From a virus, in IMG/VR virus record IMGVR_UViG_3300049734_000491, positions 32,001 through 96,000 of that record: a stretch of 64,000 bases of DNA; one strand, given 5' to 3'. The translations under genes and the position numbers were made by a program. Each line of letters starts with the position of its first letter. Within the stretch, counting starts at the first letter, position 1. The notes beneath the pieces are model-generated. The model saw only the letters and a list, made by a program, of their open reading frames with translations, did not search any database and had not been told where the DNA came from. This document shows positions 3,001-54,234 of this stretch, in pieces.

Positions 3001-5497
3001 TGCTGTTCCTCGAGAAGGTGGCTTGGCTGACGGCGAACTCGAGACGTTCGACGACGAGACCAAGGCCAGGGAGTGGCTGGAAGGGAGGTTGGCTGATCGC
3101 CGCATCCCTTTCCTTAGTGGGCTCGAGCACAACCCGGACATGTTCGACGATGTCCCGGAGCCGGCCGAGCCCGAAGGAGACCAGGGCTGGTCAGGCCCAG
3201 ACAACCCGTTCGGGATGGCCCTCGACTTCTGGGACAACGTCGGCTCGCAGATCGGCCAGTGGGACGACTGGCCCGATTTCCAGGTCGTGCTCGATGACGA
3301 GGAGGGAGCAACTCCGTACCTCAAGATCCCACATGACCCGGGAGGTGGCTGGATCCCGAGCTTCCTCGATCGCCAGGTCGATCCCGAGACCGGGGAGATC
3401 CAGTACCGGGTCACCTACGGGCAGACCCCAGACGGGAAGCCGTACTGGCCGAGTGCTTCGACCAGGTCACATTCTGATCCTCTCGATGCGATCCGAGACC
3501 TGCGGGTTCGGAGTGGCAAGAGCACGGTGACCCCAGACGAAGCACCTGAAGTTCCCGAGCCCAGAGCTCCAAGACCCAGAGCTCCAGAGCCGGCTGAGGC
3601 ACCAGAGCCGGCTGAGGTGCCTGAAGCACCGACGCCCGAGGTGCCCGAACCCGAGCCCGAGGTCCTCGAGCCCGGGCCCGAAGCTCCCGGGCCGGCTGCA
3701 CCTGAAGAAGCCGAGGGTCCGCAGCTGCCGTCACCGATCCTGGCTGAGTTGGGCATCGACCCGGGCCGAGCTGGTCACATCCCGGTCATCGCCCAGCAGG
3801 ACGGGGAGGGCAACTACACGTTCACGCCCCAGGGCCAGCCCGATGAGTTCACCAACGAGCCGGCTTTTGTCACCCAGTTCGTGGATCGAGACGGCACCAC
3901 CAAGTACCGGGTCACCGGCCGAGGCGGGAAGCCGGCTCTCGGAACCCAGACGATCTACGACAACTACGACGAGGCGATGCTGATCGCCCAGAACATCGGG
4001 CATGGCGGCCTAGGGGATCGAGATCCCCGGACTCCTGAAGAGTTGGCTGAGACACGTCGGGCTCGAGATCTGATCCGCCAGCTGTTCGATGCACATGAAG
4101 CCGATCCGACCAAGGACGGCCAGTGGCACTCGTACTGGGGTGGTGGGGATCGAGTGATGGCCCACGACTACGCAACCCGTGGTTCGTACTACCCGAAGCT
4201 CGGTGGGGGGCGACACACCGGCACCGTCTACCAGGATCCTGAGACCGGCAAGTGGGTCGGCTCCTGGTCCAACAAGGGTGGCCGGACCCAGTCCAAGCGG
4301 TCGGTCAAGGAGTTCGACAGCCCTGAAGAGGCGATGGACTACGTCAAGAAGGGCGTTGATGCCAAGATCGCCGAGTACCGGGCGAAGCAGCCGACGAAAC
4401 CGACTCCTCGAGTCCCGGGAGGTGGCTACAACCCCAACGCCACTCCCATCGAGTTGAACGAAGGCGAGGTCGGAGTTCGGACAGCTCCGACACCGGAGCA
4501 CTTCCCGAGCGAGGTCATCGTCGACGGGGTGCCCTGGGACACCGGCGGCGTCGACACGGTGAAGTCGCCGAGGCACATCTTCGCATTCCTGAAGCGGGGC
4601 GACCTCGATGACCGTGCCAAGTCGAGGCTGAAGTCGTCCCGGGCCAAGACCCCAACTCAGCAGTGGTACGACTCCGTGGTCGGGGACACATCAGATCGGT
4701 GGGACGCAGCCGGCATCCTGATGCCCGGCATCCTCTCGAACCTGCCGCTGCTCGACTCGACCGGGGCTGGGGCGAACCACGTCCAGTACACCACTGGTTG
4801 GCTGATGTCCGAGCCGATGGCGCTTCGGCACATGCAGGTCACCAGCAAGGAGAACCCGTCTGGGACGTTCTCGAACGTGGAGGTCGGCGAGCGGGTCATC
4901 ACCGCAACCCACGAGTTCGCCCACGCACTCGATCTCGCCATTGCCTTCGCCAACCGCTACCGGCAGGGCGGGGATGTCAACGGGATCCCGGGGTTGGCCG
5001 GCGTGCTGGGAGGGGGCAAGGACTTCAAGGAGGCATGGACGGTCGCCGTCTCGAGGACCACTCGAACGCCGGAGAACTACGCCCTGGGACTGAAGCAAGC
5101 GGTGGAGGACCACATCGACGATCCACTGGTCAAGGAGATGCTGCTGGCCTGGCTGGACACACCGTCGTCGGAGAAGATCAAGGCGGCGTACAGCCGGAAG
5201 TCGATCCAGTACTTCCACGATCCGACCGAGATCTTGGCTCGTACGATGCCGTACCTGCTCGAGCGCCGGCTCCGCAGGCGAGGCCATCACCTCGAAGCTC
5301 GAGAGGTCCAACAGGCCATCACCGGGTCACGTGTCCCGGGGGTGAGCTCTGGTCAGTATAGCGGATGGTTCAAGAATGGTCCACACATGGAGTGGGGAAC
5401 CGCGGAGACCGAGAGGGTGATCGACGCTCTCGAGGCCATCCTCGAGGCCAACGGGCTGTTGGACAACACGACAGGAGTTGCCCCGGCCGTGGTGTAG
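2..5497 (+). CDS. Giant acidic polyvalent-type phage protein, 5'-truncated by the window (>1830 aa), with C-terminal zincin-like metallopeptidase domain
   Basis: Frame is open from base 2. HEFAH motif at 4910-4924 followed by YFHDPTEILAR (~5210-5242). Contains internal duplicated modules and Pro/Glu-rich linkers. Confidence 0.75.
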   Translation, partial: EEQNIPAPDIDPDGRLVPVPAEPTPEAEPESAAPPPAQPELRAPEALSPEAQDRVENELDAWEERMNNAGMEVSNADLDRHRRRLEDRERRRAVGQGEQIVEQGSREGDWGRPAPGGEPLWVPPQEWVEAEQERRGLRETILFDPDQAKKSQAFWRSYNHPAGSIKFTPPADLDEMDLDRLEGEIEDLQEGLDDFVEARDRGDVENALAALNNAIESRDNIRALRDETENMLEDTWDDGALDADLAWMDDERSQLEAEVEKIPDIRPYVDDWSDPDALDKARNKRAQETLDTWSREGVFEIPPEIDDRSGKLKYEYPSDDANRAVQTIQEFLPTYMESLQDDPDQARGALQEIQMARDDLRRLSQEWAGGADWPEGNSDLADLDWVDDELARLDQLVGGPGESDVINQGALEPGEPGRPYTPAEWPSARLDPEADPQAAVAQLEQQIESVRGLRDNMQSYYDKMAERGWGGDTRRPGRWNRQDAQGKLDMYNRELAGYEAELADLQGRYPEEGAPTAGVRGLTPSGKTKPKDGRFSPEEWEQAKIDPETDPQGALDQAQWQLEKLNQSLQFIRKRRSQLRRDRESPQWPKAERERLAEMQQVREYMAELKARYPDLEPDAAGFTPPELEVPDFQAQQRILREWRDDIERVGGFAGGNWHASEFGGRDTVRYDGPDGRTFEFSQPDGANWEIAEFDRDGNHIATFDVGDRNPIEALAEVRRGELEPNVPGEPPRGAEPRSVDERIDDVEDRIGRVMDDMKVAQERYNADKSDENNTAYQDLIDEYYRLGDELRGLQNERAAQGPPQPPEPFTPTPAGEQFNTGMPLLDRNANLIHREDWPGKFRGTEVDGVPTIEYTDPDGTIYELHEPSPGEWRVRSYSPDRQELLDTWDIDRDVAEPWQYFKYDILGEPGRPAPVARDREMGDVLELPEPASYEEMVQGFIDRAKGGDTGAMNELRDRLVGSRWSQLDEIRDQNLDLNEGPGAWDGELVRGRNGKFLAYAVPREGGLADGELETFDDETKAREWLEGRLADRRIPFLSGLEHNPDMFDDVPEPAEPEGDQGWSGPDNPFGMALDFWDNVGSQIGQWDDWPDFQVVLDDEEGATPYLKIPHDPGGGWIPSFLDRQVDPETGEIQYRVTYGQTPDGKPYWPSASTRSHSDPLDAIRDLRVRSGKSTVTPDEAPEVPEPRAPRPRAPEPAEAPEPAEVPEAPTPEVPEPEPEVLEPGPEAPGPAAPEEAEGPQLPSPILAELGIDPGRAGHIPVIAQQDGEGNYTFTPQGQPDEFTNEPAFVTQFVDRDGTTKYRVTGRGGKPALGTQTIYDNYDEAMLIAQNIGHGGLGDRDPRTPEELAETRRARDLIRQLFDAHEADPTKDGQWHSYWGGGDRVMAHDYATRGSYYPKLGGGRHTGTVYQDPETGKWVGSWSNKGGRTQSKRSVKEFDSPEEAMDYVKKGVDAKIAEYRAKQPTKPTPRVPGGGYNPNATPIELNEGEVGVRTAPTPEHFPSEVIVDGVPWDTGGVDTVKSPRHIFAFLKRGDLDDRAKSRLKSSRAKTPTQQWYDSVVGDTSDRWDAAGILMPGILSNLPLLDSTGAGANHVQYTTGWLMSEPMALRHMQVTSKENPSGTFSNVEVGERVITATHEFAHALDLAIAFANRYRQGGDVNGIPGLAGVLGGGKDFKEAWTVAVSRTTRTPENYALGLKQAVEDHIDDPLVKEMLLAWLDTPSSEKIKAAYSRKSIQYFHDPTEILARTMPYLLERRLRRRGHHLEAREVQQAITGSRVPGVSSGQYSGWFKNGPHMEWGTAETERVIDALEAILEANGLLDNTTGVAPAVV

Positions 5498-47890: not shown

Positions 47891-48415
47891 TCACGACTGA
47901 CGCTGCCGAGCCCTCCAACGTCGACCAGCTTCTCGCTGACACGTTCGACAACGACGAAACCCTTTCGGGTCGATGTACGTGTTCGCTGTGTCGTAGGGAT
48001 GTCCGAACGGACAGCTGGTCATGTGTTCGTAGCGTCGACGTAGGTTCTCGGAGCGCGTAACCGGCTCGAGATGCTCAGGATTCACACACAGCGTGTTGAG
48101 GCAGAGGTGATCAAGGTCCAAGTCATCTGGAACCTTGGGTCCAAGCGCTTCGTAGATAAGTCGGTGTGCTCGATGAGTGCGACCCTGCCACTTGATCTGA
48201 CCGTACCCATCACTACTGACTGTTCCTTTCCACTGCCAACAACCTGAGCTAGGGACAATTTCGTAGAGACGGTGTAAACGATCTTCAAGAGTCTCGTCAC
48301 GAAATGCCCCACCAGCGTAAGGATCACCGTACCGCGACTGTCGATAGTGGTGAGGTCCGCAAAATCCATCTGCTCTGATCGGACGAGAGCAGTCTGGCAG
48401 CAAGCACTCAGACAT
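47891..48415 (-). CDS. HNH endonuclease with N- and C-terminal Zn motifs
   Basis: GCWQWKG..DGYG..AHR..LDHLCLNTLCVNPEHLEPVT.SEN; CPFGHPY..RRCRTC. Confidence 0.9.
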   Translation of the reverse strand: MSECLLPDCSRPIRADGFCGPHHYRQSRYGDPYAGGAFRDETLEDRLHRLYEIVPSSGCWQWKGTVSSDGYGQIKWQGRTHRAHRLIYEALGPKVPDDLDLDHLCLNTLCVNPEHLEPVTRSENLRRRYEHMTSCPFGHPYDTANTYIDPKGFRRCRTCQREAGRRWRARQRQS

Positions 48416-48426
48416 CAACGTGAACT

Positions 48427-49728
48427 CTAATCGTACGGAAGCTCCAAGTGCTTCAGAATGTGGTACGCCAACCAACGTGCCACCGGTGAAGCGATCCCAT
48501 TACCAATCATCTTGTATCGTGCACTATCTGGGATTTCGTTGCCACTTGAATCCCATCTAGTATGATCATCCGGCCAGCCCTGCAGTCGCTCACACTCCCG
48601 AGGCGTGAGCCGTCGAACCCCGATCATGTCCCCAGCTACCTGTGGGACACCAGCTCCGTTGGCCACCCGTAGCGTCGGGGTGAACTTGTCCGACACCTGC
48701 TCGTCGTGCAGGTTGTTCCCGTTGAACGAGACCACCGCCGGAGCGTGGCCGTCCGCCGGCAGCGTGGGCGAAGGATCCCCGGGCTTGGGATGGGATCGGT
48801 TGGTCTTGCTGGTGATCTGGGCGGTGTCGAACGGCATCGGCTCAGCCACGACCGTGTACATCCCCTTGTCGAGGCGGGTGGGGATCCCCTTGTAGTCGCG
48901 AGCTGTCAGCGTGTTGGCCATCTCTGGGATGAAGGTCATGCGCTCGGTGTCGGGTGACCAGCCACGTCGACCGGACCCCCCGCCCAGCGTGCCGGCCACG
49001 TCGGGGATCAAGTGGTTGGCTTGGGCGGAGTTGTCATCCGCGCCGCAACCTGCTCCAACGCCGTTTGCAGTGAGGGCGGAAGCGATCGTCCCCGACTTGC
49101 TGCCCTTCGCAGGATCCCGGCGCACCCTTTCGGTGACAGGAAGTATTTGGGGTCCACCGACTCTTCCAAGATCGAAGCAAGCGACGACGAACACTCGTCG
49201 GCGCCGTTGGGGGACTCCGCAGAAACGAGCATCCAGCACTCGCCACTGGATGTCCACCGCCCCGCATTCGGCCAAGAGGTCGAGGACTTGCGCGAAGTCG
49301 TCGCCCTGAGAGCTTGAGAGGGCGCCTCCGACGTTCTCCCAGACAGCATATGAGGGGATTCGTCCAAGGTCACGGTACTCCTTGATGATCCTGATCGCCT
49401 CGAGGAACAACCCCGAGCGAGTTCCTTCCTTCATGCCAGCTCGTTGACCCGAGATCGACAGATCTTGGCACGGGCTGCCGAAGCTGATGATGTCGCAGGG
49501 CGGCAGGTCCACTGCCTTCACGTCGGAGACATCGCCCCAGCGAGGTGTGTCCGGCCAGTGCCGAGCCAGGATCTCGTTGCACCACGAGTCCCACTCGACC
49601 AGTCCCACGGTGTTGGCCCCGACTGCCTCGAAACCGAGATCCATGCCACCGACGCCGGCGAACAGGGAGAGGTGGTCGGCCCGAGGAGTGGCGATCCGTC
49701 GCTGTCGTCGGCGAGTTGGGGTAGCCAT
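48427..49728 (-). CDS. DNA (cytosine-5) methyltransferase
   Basis: LFAGVGG, GDV, GSPCQDLS, ENV, PQRRRRVF, RRLTPRECERLQGWP, GN. Confidence 0.95.
   Translation of the reverse strand: MATPTRRRQRRIATPRADHLSLFAGVGGMDLGFEAVGANTVGLVEWDSWCNEILARHWPDTPRWGDVSDVKAVDLPPCDIISFGSPCQDLSISGQRAGMKEGTRSGLFLEAIRIIKEYRDLGRIPSYAVWENVGGALSSSQGDDFAQVLDLLAECGAVDIQWRVLDARFCGVPQRRRRVFVVACFDLGRVGGPQILPVTERVRRDPAKGSKSGTIASALTANGVGAGCGADDNSAQANHLIPDVAGTLGGGSGRRGWSPDTERMTFIPEMANTLTARDYKGIPTRLDKGMYTVVAEPMPFDTAQITSKTNRSHPKPGDPSPTLPADGHAPAVVSFNGNNLHDEQVSDKFTPTLRVANGAGVPQVAGDMIGVRRLTPRECERLQGWPDDHTRWDSSGNEIPDSARYKMIGNGIASPVARWLAYHILKHLELPYD
49008..49373 (-). CDS. Alternative-frame ORF nested in the methyltransferase gene (possible beta-polypeptide)
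   Basis: SLASILEE.VDPKYFLSPKGCAGILRRA..RG..LP..L..AL. Confidence 0.55.
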   Translation of the reverse strand: MTLDESPHMLSGRTSEAPSQALRATTSRKSSTSWPNAGRWTSSGECWMLVSAESPNGADECSSSLASILEESVDPKYFLSPKGCAGILRRAASRGRSLPPSLQTALEQVAARMTTPPKPTT

Positions 49729-49755: not shown

Positions 49756-50040
49756 TCAGCCGGGAATGGTCAACTCATTTCGGCGCTTCCGTCGTCGGCT
49801 CGTCTGGCGGTTCTTGGCCTCATCGGTGGTGGGCCCCTCCATCATCACGACGCGGACGAGCCACTGGCGGCGGCACCGAGTGTTCACGCACTGCACCACC
49901 GTCACGGCCGTGTCGGTGGAGGGTTCCTGACCCGTCTTGTGGGTGTCCCCATCACGGTCGGACTGGAAGGTGTTGCTGTTCACGTGGTCGACCTGTCCAC
50001 CACAGCGGAGGCAGGTCACATCGAGTTGGTATCGGCTCAC
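49756..50040 (-). CDS. Small Zn-ribbon protein (94 aa)
   Basis: CLRCG...CVNTRC; TAGTAT 6 nt before GTG. Confidence 0.65.
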   Translation of the reverse strand: MSRYQLDVTCLRCGGQVDHVNSNTFQSDRDGDTHKTGQEPSTDTAVTVVQCVNTRCRRQWLVRVVMMEGPTTDEAKNRQTSRRRKRRNELTIPG

Positions 50041-50071: not shown

Positions 50072-50350
50072 CGCCACCGCCGGCCGTGATTCCTGTGGCT
50101 GTCGGTGGGCTTTTGTCCGACGGTGGCGTGAGATGCCCCGCACCGCCAACCGCTCCTCGAAAGGCTGTCGAGGTAACTTCAGGTTGACGGTGCGGGAACC
50201 CGATGATCGCCACTGGTCTTGGCTGTCGATGCGACATCGGATCATTGGGTCGAGGGAGGGGCGGCTGTCGGATGTCCAATGGACCCTAGAAGGTGTCACC
50301 GCTGGCCGGAGTGCTTACAGCTGTCGCGAACTCTATGGGCCAGCGGTGAC
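50072..50350 (-). ncRNA. TIGR-like stem-loop guide array, 5 dual-spacer units
   Basis: Units at 50072-50128, 50137-50196, 50198-50250, 50247-50286, 50295-50350. Each reads stem-[CCA-like]-N9-CG-ACAG-[CCA-like]-N9(10)-CG-stem on the - strand. Confidence 0.85.
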
Positions 50351-50355
50351 GAGTA

Positions 50356-51210
50356 TTACAGACCCTCCTCTGACTTCCAGCGGGGCGGGAGGCCCGAAGC
50401 GACACGCCACAGGTCGATGCCGATCTGCTTGGCGGTGAACCGGAGGGCGGCGTTGTGCTTGTGGGCCTGCGTCCACTCCTCGCGGGCCTCGTACTTCGCC
50501 TTGGCCTGATCGTAGGCATCACGGTAGGGAGACCGACGACGGGGCGCCCGTGTTACGGCTGTCGCGGCATTCGCGGCCGCGTCGTCGGTCAGGATGACGG
50601 GATCATCGGTACCACCACCGGTCGCGCACAGCCCAGCTCCCGTAACCACATCGGACTCGGTGGTGGTACCGGCCGAGCCGATCTGCTTGACGCAGGACTC
50701 GGCGAGCAGGTGGAGCAGCATCTTCGCCACGGGGTTGCCCAGAGCGAGGGTGTCTGCCTGGTCCATCCCCTTGCGGCGCTTGGCCGCGGGGTCGCCGTGG
50801 CCGCAGTAGGCCAGCAGCTGGCGGGGCGTGCGGTCGAACGGCTCGAGCGCCACGAGGTGGCGATCCTTGCCGCAGCGGAACGAGCACTCGTGCCCCTCGG
50901 GGGACTCGTCCATCCAGATCCACGGCTCGGCGTGGATGGGATCACCGATGGCACCGAGCAGGCGAGCCACGGTGTGCTCACCCAGTCCGACGGTGTCTCG
51001 GGCCCACGCGTAGAGCTCGGGGGCGGCGACACGGAAGGTCCGCTTCATCGCCAGCGCCAGCATCTTCTCGGTGGCCTGCAGGTTGGTCACGTGCTGGGTC
51101 ATGGCCTCGGGGGCCGCTGGGATGTGGCGGAGTCTGTGCTCCGTGGCGATCCGCAGCTTCTGGGCATCGTGATAGCTCTCGGCGATCACCTTCAATTGGT
51201 CGTAGCTCAT
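50356..51210 (-). CDS. tasA: TasA-like Nop-domain (IS110-related) RNA-binding protein lacking a nuclease domain
   Basis: Coiled coil YHDAQKLRIA..HRL; HhH GLGEHTVARLL; RT..QL.AYCG; GN..AK..L; SPYR..YD; H.HN.ALR..AK. No N-terminal DEDD/RuvC domain and no SG catalytic motif; array is adjacent. Confidence 0.8.
   Translation of the reverse strand: MSYDQLKVIAESYHDAQKLRIATEHRLRHIPAAPEAMTQHVTNLQATEKMLALAMKRTFRVAAPELYAWARDTVGLGEHTVARLLGAIGDPIHAEPWIWMDESPEGHECSFRCGKDRHLVALEPFDRTPRQLLAYCGHGDPAAKRRKGMDQADTLALGNPVAKMLLHLLAESCVKQIGSAGTTTESDVVTGAGLCATGGGTDDPVILTDDAAANAATAVTRAPRRRSPYRDAYDQAKAKYEAREEWTQAHKHNAALRFTAKQIGIDLWRVASGLPPRWKSEEGL
50531..50671 (-). ncRNA. Two TIGR-like stem-loop units embedded in the tas coding sequence
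   Basis: 50531-50590: stem-CCG-CGAATGCCG-CG-ACAG-CCG-TAACACGGG-CG-stem. 50607-50671: stem-CCG-ATGTGGTTA-CG-GGAG-CTG-GGCTGTGCG-CG-stem. Confidence 0.8.
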
Positions 51211-51244
51211 TGTCTTGTCCTTTGGTCGTTGTCGTTGTCGTTGG

Positions 51245-51739
51245 TCAGTTGTCGAGGTCAGCGAGACAGGTCACGCCGGCCGCGATGATGGTCTGTGCAG
51301 CCTCCTCGTGGGCGAGGCGGGTGTCACGGATGGAGTTCTCTTGGGTGAGCAGCCAGCCCGCACGGGCGAGATGGTCGTCGGCGGTTGCCTTCAACCATTC
51401 AACCCATCGTCCATCGGGCAGGATGAACGACTGCTCCATGAGCAGCCGACGGGCGGTAGTGGGGTCGGCTCCGGCCGCGATGTCGGTCCGGACTCGGATC
51501 TCGGTCCGACGAACCTCGGCCCGCTGAATGCGGGACACCTCGTAGCGCACGAGCTGGAGCAGCCAGCGCCGTCGCTCGGACTCGGTGAGCGCAGCGATGG
51601 CTGCCTCGGCGATGTCCTGCTGATCTTCGAGACCCGAAGCGATCGCAGCCTTGATGTGGGCGTAGAGCGACGTGGGTGTCGTGACAGCCGACGGGAGGGT
51701 AGTGGTTGTCGGTGTTGTTGGTGGTGCTTGGAACGTCAT
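51245..51739 (-). CDS. Hypothetical helical protein directly upstream of tas (164 aa)
   Basis: Same strand, 34-nt gap containing the AAAGGA RBS for tas; FILPDGRWVEW..AT..DH motif. Confidence 0.75.
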   Translation of the reverse strand: MTFQAPPTTPTTTTLPSAVTTPTSLYAHIKAAIASGLEDQQDIAEAAIAALTESERRRWLLQLVRYEVSRIQRAEVRRTEIRVRTDIAAGADPTTARRLLMEQSFILPDGRWVEWLKATADDHLARAGWLLTQENSIRDTRLAHEEAAQTIIAAGVTCLADLDN

Positions 51740-51746
51740 GGCGGTG

Positions 51747-51777
51747 ACTATAACACACGGTCCTTCGCTGCTGACAA
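51747..51777 (-). promoter_or_regulatory. Sigma70/SigA-like leaderless promoter of the tas operon
   Basis: TTGTCA-N19-TATAGT (with TGN extension), 7 nt before ATG 51739. Confidence 0.55.
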
Positions 51778-52056
51778 ATTACCTGTGGTATCCACAGGAA
51801 GGAGCTCGCTGTGAGTCCCCGAGGAAGAGATCCTGATGACCCAGACGAGTTCCTGCTGTTCGTGCTGGTCGGCCTCGCTTGCCTGGTCCTGCTGTTCTAC
51901 TGGTTCCTGTGGTGGTACCGAACAGGCGGGTCGTAACAGGATTGACACGAACGGAACCCATCTGTAGTACCCTGCCACAAACGAACGGAGCGACCCCCCC
52001 TGCCAAGAGAAGGTCGCTCCGTTGTCCTAATCATCCACTGAAAGGACCCGCCGATT

Positions 52057-52910: not shown

Positions 52911-53132
52911 GTGAGCGACGACGACTCAGACGGCGACGAGCGAACCCTCCGAGAGCGGATCGGTGATGCTGTCGAAGGTCTCGGTGAACGGATCGGCGGC
53001 AGTGACGAAGCCGAGTTCTTCGAGGACGTTGAGGAGAACGAGGAAACCGACGAGCGCGGGATCTTCCGCAGGTTCGCCGGCCGGCTTCCCCTCCGGCGTC
53101 ATCCTGACTCAGTGGACGAAGATGAGCGCTGA
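52911..53132 (+). CDS. Small acidic protein (73 aa)
   Basis: GAGGAGG RBS before GTG. Confidence 0.55.
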   Translation: MSDDDSDGDERTLRERIGDAVEGLGERIGGSDEAEFFEDVEENEETDERGIFRRFAGRLPLRRHPDSVDEDER

Positions 53133-53500
53133 CGTCGTTCCTCACGACAGATCCGGCACGTCCTTGACACGTAGCCGTCAGTGCCTCGCTGCCAGTACGT
53201 GGACTCTTCGGTGTAAGGATGACCGTGGATGCACGCCACCTTGCGTTCATTCCGACGTCGCCGGTTCTCGGCGAGGGTGACAGCCTCAAGATGGCCAAGG
53301 TTCACACAACCTCGGTTGCCGCACAGGTGGTCGACTTCCCAGCCAGGTTCGAGAGGACCGTTGGCTTCGATCCACACCCAGCGGTGAGCCGGCGTTGTGG
53401 TGGCACGTCCATCGACCTTGATGTGTTTCGTCCCGTACCCGTTGGGTTTCAGGGCGCCAGACCACAATTCACAGTCTTCAGTGTTCACTCCGATACCCAT
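53099..53500 (-). CDS. HNH endonuclease
   Basis: [36 protein letters not shown]; CIHGHPY..RTCRIC. Confidence 0.9.
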
Positions 53501-53535
53501 CCTTGGATCATGACAGGAATGGAGGTGTAACGACA

Positions 53536-54234
53536 ATGTCTTGGTATGTTGCTCAGTCGCTCGATCAGCTGCTCGATGAGATCAACGCCAGTGCCCCCGG
53601 CAGGAGCAAGGCCTCCGACGGGAGCATCGGCGATGCAGATCACAGCAGCCGTACGAGCGACCATTAGCGCAATCCCTGCGATTGCCACCGAGCTGTCTGT
53701 GCTCGGGACTTCACACACGATCCCGGCGGCGGCTTCGACTCCTACGCGTTCGCCCACTGGTTGGCTGAGCGAACCAAGGGCCCCGAGACCAGGGTCAAGT
53801 ACATTATAAGCAATGGTCAGATTGCTAGCGGACAGGGGCAGGACTACCCAGCTGGCGTCTGGCGGCCCTACACGGGAAGCAACCCCCACGACCATCACGT
53901 CCACGTGTCGGTACGCCACGGCTCCGAGCTGTTCGACAACGCCGCAGGCTGGAGTTGGTCGGGAGCGGCGCCAGGCCCCGGCCCCGGCCCGGAGCCGCCA
54001 GAACCAGAGATCCCACAAGGAGTATTCGACATGTTCGTTCTGATCGCCGACCAAAAGCCCGGTGCGTTGCTCGGCAACGTCTACTTCGAGTTCGCCATGG
54101 AGGAGTACCTCGCGGCGCAGAAGTACTCGCCGAACGTGCCGGTCATGCAGATCGGCCCGGAAACGAACGGCCTTGGCCGTCAGTGGCTGGTCGATCGTCT
54201 CCGCGAGCAGTCGGCCAAGGCAACCGGAACCTGA
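53536..54234 (+). pseudogene. Endolysin (Zn peptidase, M15/LAS-like) interrupted by an in-frame TAG
   Basis: GGAGGT RBS; MSWYVA...[17 protein letters not shown]...ARDFTHD...YII.NG.I...NPHDHHVHVSV; TAG at 53665-53667. Confidence 0.75.

Follow-up and report, generated by a model that had tools for sequence, protein, structure and literature searches.

Tandem interspaced guide RNA (TIGR) arrays and their Tas proteins were described only in 2025. Among the stem-loop TIGR-TasA systems, the named comparators used here are PlTasA, which comes from a gut contig of Peromyscus leucopus (Faure 2025 Science; Guan 2026), and BlTasA and MbTasA (Xu 2026). Stem-loop TIGR arrays have been reported to be expressed and cut to single hairpin units bound by TasA (Faure 2025, PMC12045711), with variable palindromic stems replacing edge repeats (PMC12045711). 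The Tas dimer is reported to hold two box C/D pairs (PMC12045711), and the two 9-nucleotide (nt) spacers to pair with different strands of one contiguous 18-bp site (PMC12045711; Guan 2026); in the structure of PlTasA with its guide RNA (tigRNA) and DNA, either DNA strand takes part in a 9-bp heteroduplex (Guan 2026, bioRxiv 10.64898/2026.08.11.744272). According to Xu 2026 (bioRxiv 10.64898/2026.09.09.750476), TasA ribonucleoproteins (RNPs) bind target DNA and repress transcription reversibly, repression having been demonstrated experimentally there for TasA proteins other than the one considered below. Intragenic guides are already published in the same source, and its TIGRFinder methods take TG or CG as box D, with CCA plus CG as one motif pair used. 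Here we analyzed a window of 64,000 nt, bases 32001-96000 of the 127,992-bp virus record IMGVR_UViG_3300049734_000491 (rated 95% complete; 63.8% GC), which probably derives from a soil phage whose high-GC hosts are probably actinobacterial. It carries, at positions 50,072 to 51,777, an array of hairpins next to a gene that we call tasA (tas1), and this locus, we conclude, is very probably a TIGR-TasA system of the stem-loop type.

Those defining features of stem-loop TIGR-TasA that can be tested in silico are present at the locus, which makes it a member of a published kind and introduces no new principle. A preliminary description of the sequence had presented the CG box D and the stem-delimited units as atypical. 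That view has to be given up, since both are published variants (Xu 2026; Faure 2025), and the locus is therefore much less novel than first thought.

The tasA gene (50356..51210, minus strand) is an open reading frame of 284 amino acids (aa), in which profiles and a structure model place a coiled coil and a Nop C-terminal domain without any nuclease. A family profile built from 41 homologues matched TaTasR in the PDB (9mty_A, E 6.8e-23) over chain residues 117-296, which correspond to its coiled coil and Nop domain, and TasH with an E value of 1.2e-14. The NCBIfam family NF052498 (TIGR-Tas system RNA-guided endonuclease) was matched at E 2.2e-26 over profile positions 1-149 of 215. The AlphaFold2 model had a predicted local distance difference test (pLDDT) score of 87.7 and a predicted template modelling (pTM) score of 0.81. 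When it was compared with the PDB by Foldseek, the top 10 rows were all TasR or TasH chains with template modelling (TM) scores of 0.48-0.56, TasR 9mty being the best (0.56/0.54), and the next matches were IS110-family recombinases and Nop5. The protein starts at the coiled coil, with a helix from residue 3 and an alignment that begins at TaTasR residue 117, and it contains a disordered insertion at residues ~180-222. Its last long helix stops at residue 271 of 284, followed by a C-terminal tail, SGLPPRWKSEEGL, which has neither Y nor H. In the model, the coiled coil, the Nop domain and the disordered insertion wholly fill the 284 aa; no Pfam domain was found and no space is left for RuvC or HNH. 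The absence of a nuclease domain identifies the protein as TasA. The Nop/IS110-type fold and the lack of RuvC and HNH, both proposed beforehand from the letters of the sequence, are thus borne out, and profile, NCBIfam, fold and unit layout agree on a TasA-like Tas protein with dual-spacer guides.

Five tigRNA units lie downstream of tasA on the same minus strand, the first beginning 5 nt past its TAA stop. Units 1 to 5 are found at 50295..50350 (13-bp stem), 50247..50286 (5-bp stem), 50203..50245 (6-bp stem), 50136..50197 (16-bp stem) and 50072..50128 (12-bp stem). Their stems are unrelated in sequence and their loops share a common layout, as the preliminary description had it letter for letter: box C, 9-nt spacer A, CG, ACAG, CCN (once CTG), 9-nt spacer B (10 nt in unit 3) and CG, the box C being CCA, CCA, CCG, CTG and ACA in units 1-5. 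Unit 5, with its ACA and slightly longer loop arms, is a weak match (E 0.77) to a covariance model that we built from 20 units of this genome. The five downstream hairpins thus stood up to reanalysis, and the total of five did not: a sixth unit is located inside the tasA coding sequence, at codons 207-227 (50531..50590, minus strand). This intragenic unit has a 15-column stem with 14 pairs and one mismatch, a loop of the form CCG-9-CG-ACAG-CCG-9-CG, and the top covariance-model score in the genome (39.6 bits). Its 3' arm is formed by the conserved RRRS codons of tasA, and it coincides with the low-confidence insertion of the TasA model. Read in a fixed register, the 6 units of the window and 17 others (23 of ~26 in the genome; three units downstream of a second tasA, described below, were read separately) fit the layout C(C/T)N-9-CG-N4-CCN-9-CG, from which a few units depart at box C or box D'.

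Several comparisons with shuffled sequence set this arrangement apart from chance. The window contains the motif CGACAGC 31 times, where shuffles give 18.3 +/- 4.8 and none of 100 reaches 31; five minus-strand copies are crowded into 229 bp (50098-50326), with a sixth copy at 50558-50564. The 321-nt array stretch folds at -140.8 kcal/mol, compared with -113.2 +/- 5.7 for its shuffles (z -4.89). Across the 20 canonical units of this genome, stem columns are paired in 89.4% of cells versus 61.1% when shuffled, and changes on both sides were observed in 7 of 8 stem pairs. The covariation score of the same units is 0.723 versus 0.200, a value reached by 0 of 500 shuffles and one that collapses once the stem partners are shifted by 1-3 columns. 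Without exception, the 20/20 units have the G of box D and the C of box C', the two bases that close the 4-nt turn.

The same architecture is widespread among relatives. In related viral loci the covariance model gave 181 matches at E <= 1, distributed over 49 of 63 loci, and 179 of the 181 lie on the tas strand. The protein family is well conserved and the tas frames are intact in the 63 viral loci. Among the best 150 units, 101 are found upstream of the tas gene, 37 downstream and 11 inside it. Similarly, 8 loci from bacterial genomes, mostly Actinomycetota, contributed 25 matches, of which 23 are on the tas strand. The family consensus is stem-CCA-N9-CG-N4-CCA-N9-CG-stem, and the counts of box letters in 150 family units are 147 for C, 146 for C and 136 for A, then 149 for C and 150 for G. 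Spacers are distinct in 265 of 268 cases, so that the preliminary expectation of homologous loci that keep the layout while their spacers vary was borne out. Spacer composition, determined in 134 distinct units of related loci, depends on position (chi-square p 3e-27), with 32% GC at position 1, 76% at position 3 and 73% at position 6. The pattern is alike in spacers A and B, and this symmetry suggests a constraint imposed by the RNP, through seed or stability, and not the codon phase of a target. Cultured actinophages carry the family as well. Gordonia phage Morrissey has 7 canonical CCA-9-CG-N4-CCA-9-CG units around gp42, annotated as 'hypothetical protein'; 4 of them precede the gene, 1 falls in its 5' end and 2 follow it. 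In Mycobacterium phage Bethlehem, ~4 units occupy the 335-bp gap upstream of gp71 (annotated 'transposase'), which lies a few genes from repressor and superinfection-immunity genes; 82 Mycobacterium phage records contain a homologue.

Beyond the window, the record holds ~20 further units, giving ~26 in the whole genome. The largest group is a remote array of 14 units at record ~3214-3913 on the plus strand, where a DUF3987 gene is followed by 1.5 kb of non-coding DNA. It is distant from both tasA genes of the linear record, and its loops belong to the type seen with the first tasA. A 36-40 nt period and a common palindromic edge, CGGG(C/T)(T/C)GGCCCC, mark the last five of these units; from their letters they look dual-repeat-like, while the other units have unique stems. 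Long C-rich tracts (CCCCT/CCCCC runs) flank the 3' end of this array at record 3900-4070 and are followed at record ~4065-4090 by two tandem copies of GCGTCGCGACAGC. A lone canonical unit on the minus strand at record ~126,875-126,920, with a 16-column stem of 15 pairs and the second-best covariance-model score in the genome, sits between a small gene and a gene for a helix-turn-helix protein, 2 kb from the second tasA.

This second tasA, tas2 (record 124,010-124,858, minus strand), encodes a divergent protein of 282 aa with 37% identity to tas1. Its rank among the tas1 BLASTP matches, 112th of 122, indicates that tas1 and tas2 are old paralogues. The tas2 set (record 123,832-124,858) has two units inside the coding sequence and three just downstream. 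Its 4-nt turns end in C (ACAC, ATAC, ATGC), compared with G in the tas1 set (ACAG, ACGG). The first unit downstream of tas2 is nearly a copy of the first unit inside it, with one base different per spacer and a similar linker (the pair lies at L006:12230-12275 and L006:11953-11998, minus strand, where L006:11832 is record position 123,832). The likeness of the two sequences suggests that arrays may grow when units are duplicated locally, from coding into non-coding sequence or the reverse.

Directly upstream of tas1 lies a partner gene (51245..51739, minus strand), an open reading frame for a helical protein of 164 aa. Its product is related to that of the gene upstream of tas2 (BLASTP E 1e-5), and tas2 overlaps the stop of its own partner by 4 nt. 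A hidden Markov model of the partner found it in 33 of 73 related loci, in all cases on the tas strand and in 32 of them upstream, and the partner family comprises 1,777 cluster representatives at E <= 0.001. The protein matched no family in Pfam, NCBIfam, PADLOC, a PDB profile search or a protein atlas, and Pfam returned nothing informative on 12 partner-family representatives. Its structure model (pLDDT 90.6) had no Foldseek match in the PDB at E <= 0.001, and the best hit of the VIA-align wide search (Z 5.8) reflected generic long helices. A predicted complex of TasA with the partner scored 0.00, a value that counts neither for nor against binding. The partner was not found in the main texts of Faure 2025, Xu 2026 and Guan 2026, that of Xu 2026 mentioning neither 'accessory' nor 'paralog'; the supplements may list it.

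The partner gives rise to the best surviving alternative, in which the locus encodes a two-protein machine: TasA and its guides would do the targeting, and a recruited partner would carry out the real function, for instance in replication, recombination, partition or packaging. Such a division of labor would account for a large, unnamed family whose members keep to the tas strand and, in all but one of their 33 loci, stand directly upstream; for the separate partner copy that each divergent tasA of this phage possesses; and for the 4-nt overlap at tas2. A precedent for an accessory protein is also reported, as a ParB-like gene is operonized with some TasA genes (Faure 2025, PMC12045711). On the other hand, 40 of the 73 loci are without a partner by this profile, which implies that TasA can exist alone, and Morrissey has a full array and no detectable partner. 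Moreover, other TasA proteins are reported to repress unaided in E. coli (Xu 2026, bioRxiv 10.64898/2026.09.09.750476), and no recognizable catalytic or DNA-binding fold was seen in the partner. We therefore consider the two-protein machine doubtful.

For the stem-loop TIGR-TasA system itself, a mechanism can be outlined from the sequence and from its characterized relatives. Partner gene, tasA and array would probably be transcribed as one minus-strand RNA from a promoter-like site, TTGTCA-19 nt-TATAGT (51747..51777, minus strand), which was read by eye and ends 7 nt before the partner ATG. Judged by its position, this site would yield a leaderless transcript of the partner gene. Consensus promoter scans, which apply a spacing rule of 16-18 nt, found no site, the TTGTCA/TATAGT spacing being 19 nt. 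As in other stem-loop systems, an RNase would then cut the transcript between hairpins to release single units, each presumably acting as a stem with a loop in the order seen in the sequence: box C, spacer A, box D, the turn ACAG, box C, spacer B and box D. By analogy with the solved TasR, TasH and TasA complexes, a TasA dimer held together by its coiled coil may grip the two box C/D pairs, and the two spacers would pair with opposite strands of a single contiguous 18-bp DNA site. The nuclease-less complex would bind and unwind the DNA uncut, and may block transcription or replication there.

We next consider what the guides might recognize. A predicted target was composed of spacer A and then spacer B in reverse complement, an order chosen because 8-nt 3' overhangs are reported for TasR, and the opposite order served as control. 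In the phage's own 127,992-bp genome, the 23 predicted 18-mers had 0 matches at <= 2 mismatches, and at 3 mismatches 1 match against 4 for the control. When all 157 distinct units were compared with 695 kb of phage and bacterial loci, 10 matches at 2 mismatches versus 5 for the control amounted to chance level. Exact scans of a viral contig collection with two window guides returned 0 and 1 matches, and the lone exact match was taken as chance since it lies in a 38%-GC contig unmatched by other guides. Four guides from two lysogen-type loci, of Nocardioides sp. and Patulibacter defluvii, searched against their own genomes at <= 2 mismatches, gave 0, 0, 0 and 2 matches (control 1, 0, 0 and 2), and the seven Morrissey guides had 0 matches in their own genome at <= 3 mismatches. 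The spacer-pair search proposed in the preliminary description thus yielded nothing above the reversed-order control in the phage genome, the other loci, the contig collection, the lysogens or Morrissey. Separately, the idea that guides are aimed at ribosome-binding sites was tried and rejected: a Shine-Dalgarno-like 4-mer is present in 9 of 23 targets, compared with 8.2 +/- 2.5 in random 18-mers, and in 34 of 134 family units, compared with 37.8 +/- 5.0. The spacers have 51% GC and are AT-richer than the genome at 63.8%. Together with the lack of own-genome targets, this indicates that the phage's own genes are apparently not regulated. Most likely, the guides would aim at foreign DNA, be it of competing phages, other mobile elements or the host.

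Another possibility is that the guides direct the protein to RNA in the manner of box C/D small nucleolar RNAs, with RNA modification or translational control as the outcome. The box C/D-like layout and the relationship to Nop5 would fit such a role, as would the AT-richer spacers. It is nevertheless very unlikely in our assessment. The surroundings of the locus showed neither a fibrillarin-type methyltransferase nor an L7Ae partner, TasR is reported to be inactive on RNA substrates (PMC12045711), TasA complexes are reported to bind double-stranded DNA (Xu 2026; Guan 2026), and the test of predicted targets for ribosome-binding-site motifs was negative.

Still less credible is a decayed IS110-type insertion element, whose transposase remnant would be accompanied by functionless hairpins left over from a bridge RNA or from terminal structures. 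The labels of databases point in this direction: TasA matches PHROG 4285, named 'transposase', at E 2.6e-25, which is consistent with the IS110 relationship; mycobacteriophage relatives are annotated 'transposase'; and IS110-family recombinases are among the fold matches of TasA. However, neither the RuvC-like DEDD domain nor the catalytic serine (Tnp) domain of such transposases was found in TasA by Pfam or in the model, and PF02371 was touched weakly by just 2 of the 41 family members (best E 0.0005). TasR and TasH match far better than IS110 (E 1e-6 versus 1e-2). Decay is also hard to reconcile with a genome that holds 26 units whose stems covary and whose box motifs are invariant, or with a well-conserved protein family whose frames are intact in 63 viral loci. 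Finally, GC-rich stem-loops 3' of genes are common and a terminator-like site is present near the tasA locus (51782-51798), and there is next to no chance that the hairpins are ordinary terminators, attenuators or a dispersed palindromic repeat unrelated to the adjacent protein, given that the stems lack trailing T tracts, that the loop and not the stem is the conserved part, that some units lie within coding sequence, and that the same loop layout accompanies tas homologues in 49/63 loci with a strand bias of 179:2.

Soil sequencing runs also contain the locus. The segment 49700-51900 of the window is present in 12 DNA runs from soil metagenomes, and in 11 of these no fewer than half of the words sampled from it were found. 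The array is letter-identical in two other soil DNA runs (X2 and X8), with no variant letters; this identity across DNA runs indicates that the phage recurs in one year's soil samples without visible spacer change. In addition, two soil RNA-library runs contain three identical contigs of 151-155 nt at depth 2-4, located at window positions 50299-50449, 50546-50696 and 49799-49953, the first two of which overlap unit 1 and the intragenic unit. The contigs span 6 and 4 of 30 bins, and the uncovered bins are uninformative.

Several observations count against a stem-loop TIGR-TasA system. The NF052498 score of TasA is 93.1 bits, below the curated cut-off of 100 (tas2 scores 76.1 bits), in an equivalog model that is named for endonucleases, TasA here being nuclease-less. 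The CUU processing motif is absent: of 17 segments between units, 2 contain CTT, and the genome rate predicts 4.3. The RNA signal of array and tasA consists of the short assembled contigs just described, for which DNA carry-over is possible. None of the target searches found a natural target of the putative repressor. The conserved partner, for its part, suggests that the system may do more than steric repression.

The genes around the locus were also recorded. Three minus-strand genes lie 3' of the tasA operon: at 49756-50040 a small one of zinc-ribbon-like type, at 48427-49728 one for a C-5 cytosine DNA methyltransferase, and at 47891-48475 one for an HNH endonuclease. Another HNH endonuclease lies at 53099-53536, likewise on the minus strand. 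The window contains no tRNA genes, and at gathering score no Rfam family was matched by it or by the two end regions of the record. The DNA had no similarity to any of 50,697 phage records, in either near or distant search mode.

The locus is of value in several respects. Its near-complete 128-kb genome has 26 guides, and no self-targeting one is among the 23 that were tested; it brings together two divergent TasA sets in one phage and an unnamed conserved partner family. The Tas family is linked to cultured actinophages with laboratory hosts, Gordonia terrae for Morrissey and M. smegmatis mc2 155 for Bethlehem, in which function could be tested, and the labels 'transposase' and 'hypothetical protein' on these phage genes should read TasA. 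We tentatively propose, as a possibility more likely to fail than to hold, that the locus represents a distinct TasA subtype of high-GC soil and actinobacterial phages with a dedicated helical accessory protein of ~150 aa, in which two divergent sets and a remote 14-guide array together direct 26 guides against foreign DNA. If this is true, gp42 of the cultured phage Morrissey and gp71 of Bethlehem would make natural TIGR targets directly testable.

Among known systems, Nop5, the scaffold of archaeal and eukaryotic box C/D small ribonucleoproteins (e.g. 1NT2), has a coiled-coil dimer, a Nop domain and the guide order C-guide-D-C'-guide-D' in common with this locus. The fold match is partial and weak (94 columns, E 0.72). 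In contrast to Nop5, there are no fibrillarin or L7Ae partners, and the target would be DNA and not RNA, by analogy with characterized Tas proteins. IS110 recombinases (IS621, 8WT6/8WT9; ISCro4, 9T56) have an RNA-binding coiled coil and a C-terminal fold related to those of TasA (Foldseek E 0.013-0.054), and the internal loops of their bridge RNA read both DNA strands, as is proposed for the guides here. Unlike IS110, the locus has no RuvC-like DEDD or catalytic serine domain and no donor or target loops, many small guides take the place of a single bridge RNA, and there is no sign of mobility.

Closer are the dual-repeat systems TaTasR (PDB 9MTY) and SpTasH (PDB 9W04 and others), with which TasA has in common the core of Nop domain and coiled coil (TM ~0.5-0.56), the 9-nt spacers and a 9-nt loop segment made of box D, 4 nt and box C. 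The loop repeat of TasR is reported as UG, four bases and CCA, closed by G-C (PMC12045711), and CG-ACAG-CCN here has the same build. TaTasR and SpTasH carry a RuvC or HNH nuclease and cut DNA, whereas TasA here is without one. Their arrays have conserved edge repeats, and a Y/H dyad cuts the RNAs to 36 nt; the stems in this phage are mostly unique, and a dual-repeat-like look is confined to the last five of the 14 remote units. Identity to any solved Tas protein is 15-18% in fold alignments.

The closest resemblance is to PlTasA, BlTasA and MbTasA, which likewise are nuclease-less proteins of coiled coil and Nop domain. Common to this locus and the stem-loop TasA systems are tandem hairpins with unrelated palindromic stems and two ~9-nt spacers between box C/D, a 9-nt segment separating the spacers, and units upstream, downstream and inside the tas gene. 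The short C-terminal tail without a Y/H processing loop is a feature that Xu 2026 reports for the stem-loop-binding Tas clade. CUU at the stem base, reported as a mark of the processing site that is frequent but not defining in stem-loop arrays (Xu 2026), is absent here. The locus further departs from PlTasA, BlTasA and MbTasA in its box D, which is CG throughout, and in the loose third base of box C (CCN). Overall, what distinguishes it from the known stem-loop TasA systems is its range among high-GC soil phages, a conserved partner gene upstream, and, within one phage, a pair of divergent tasA genes with 26 units, 14 of them in a remote array.

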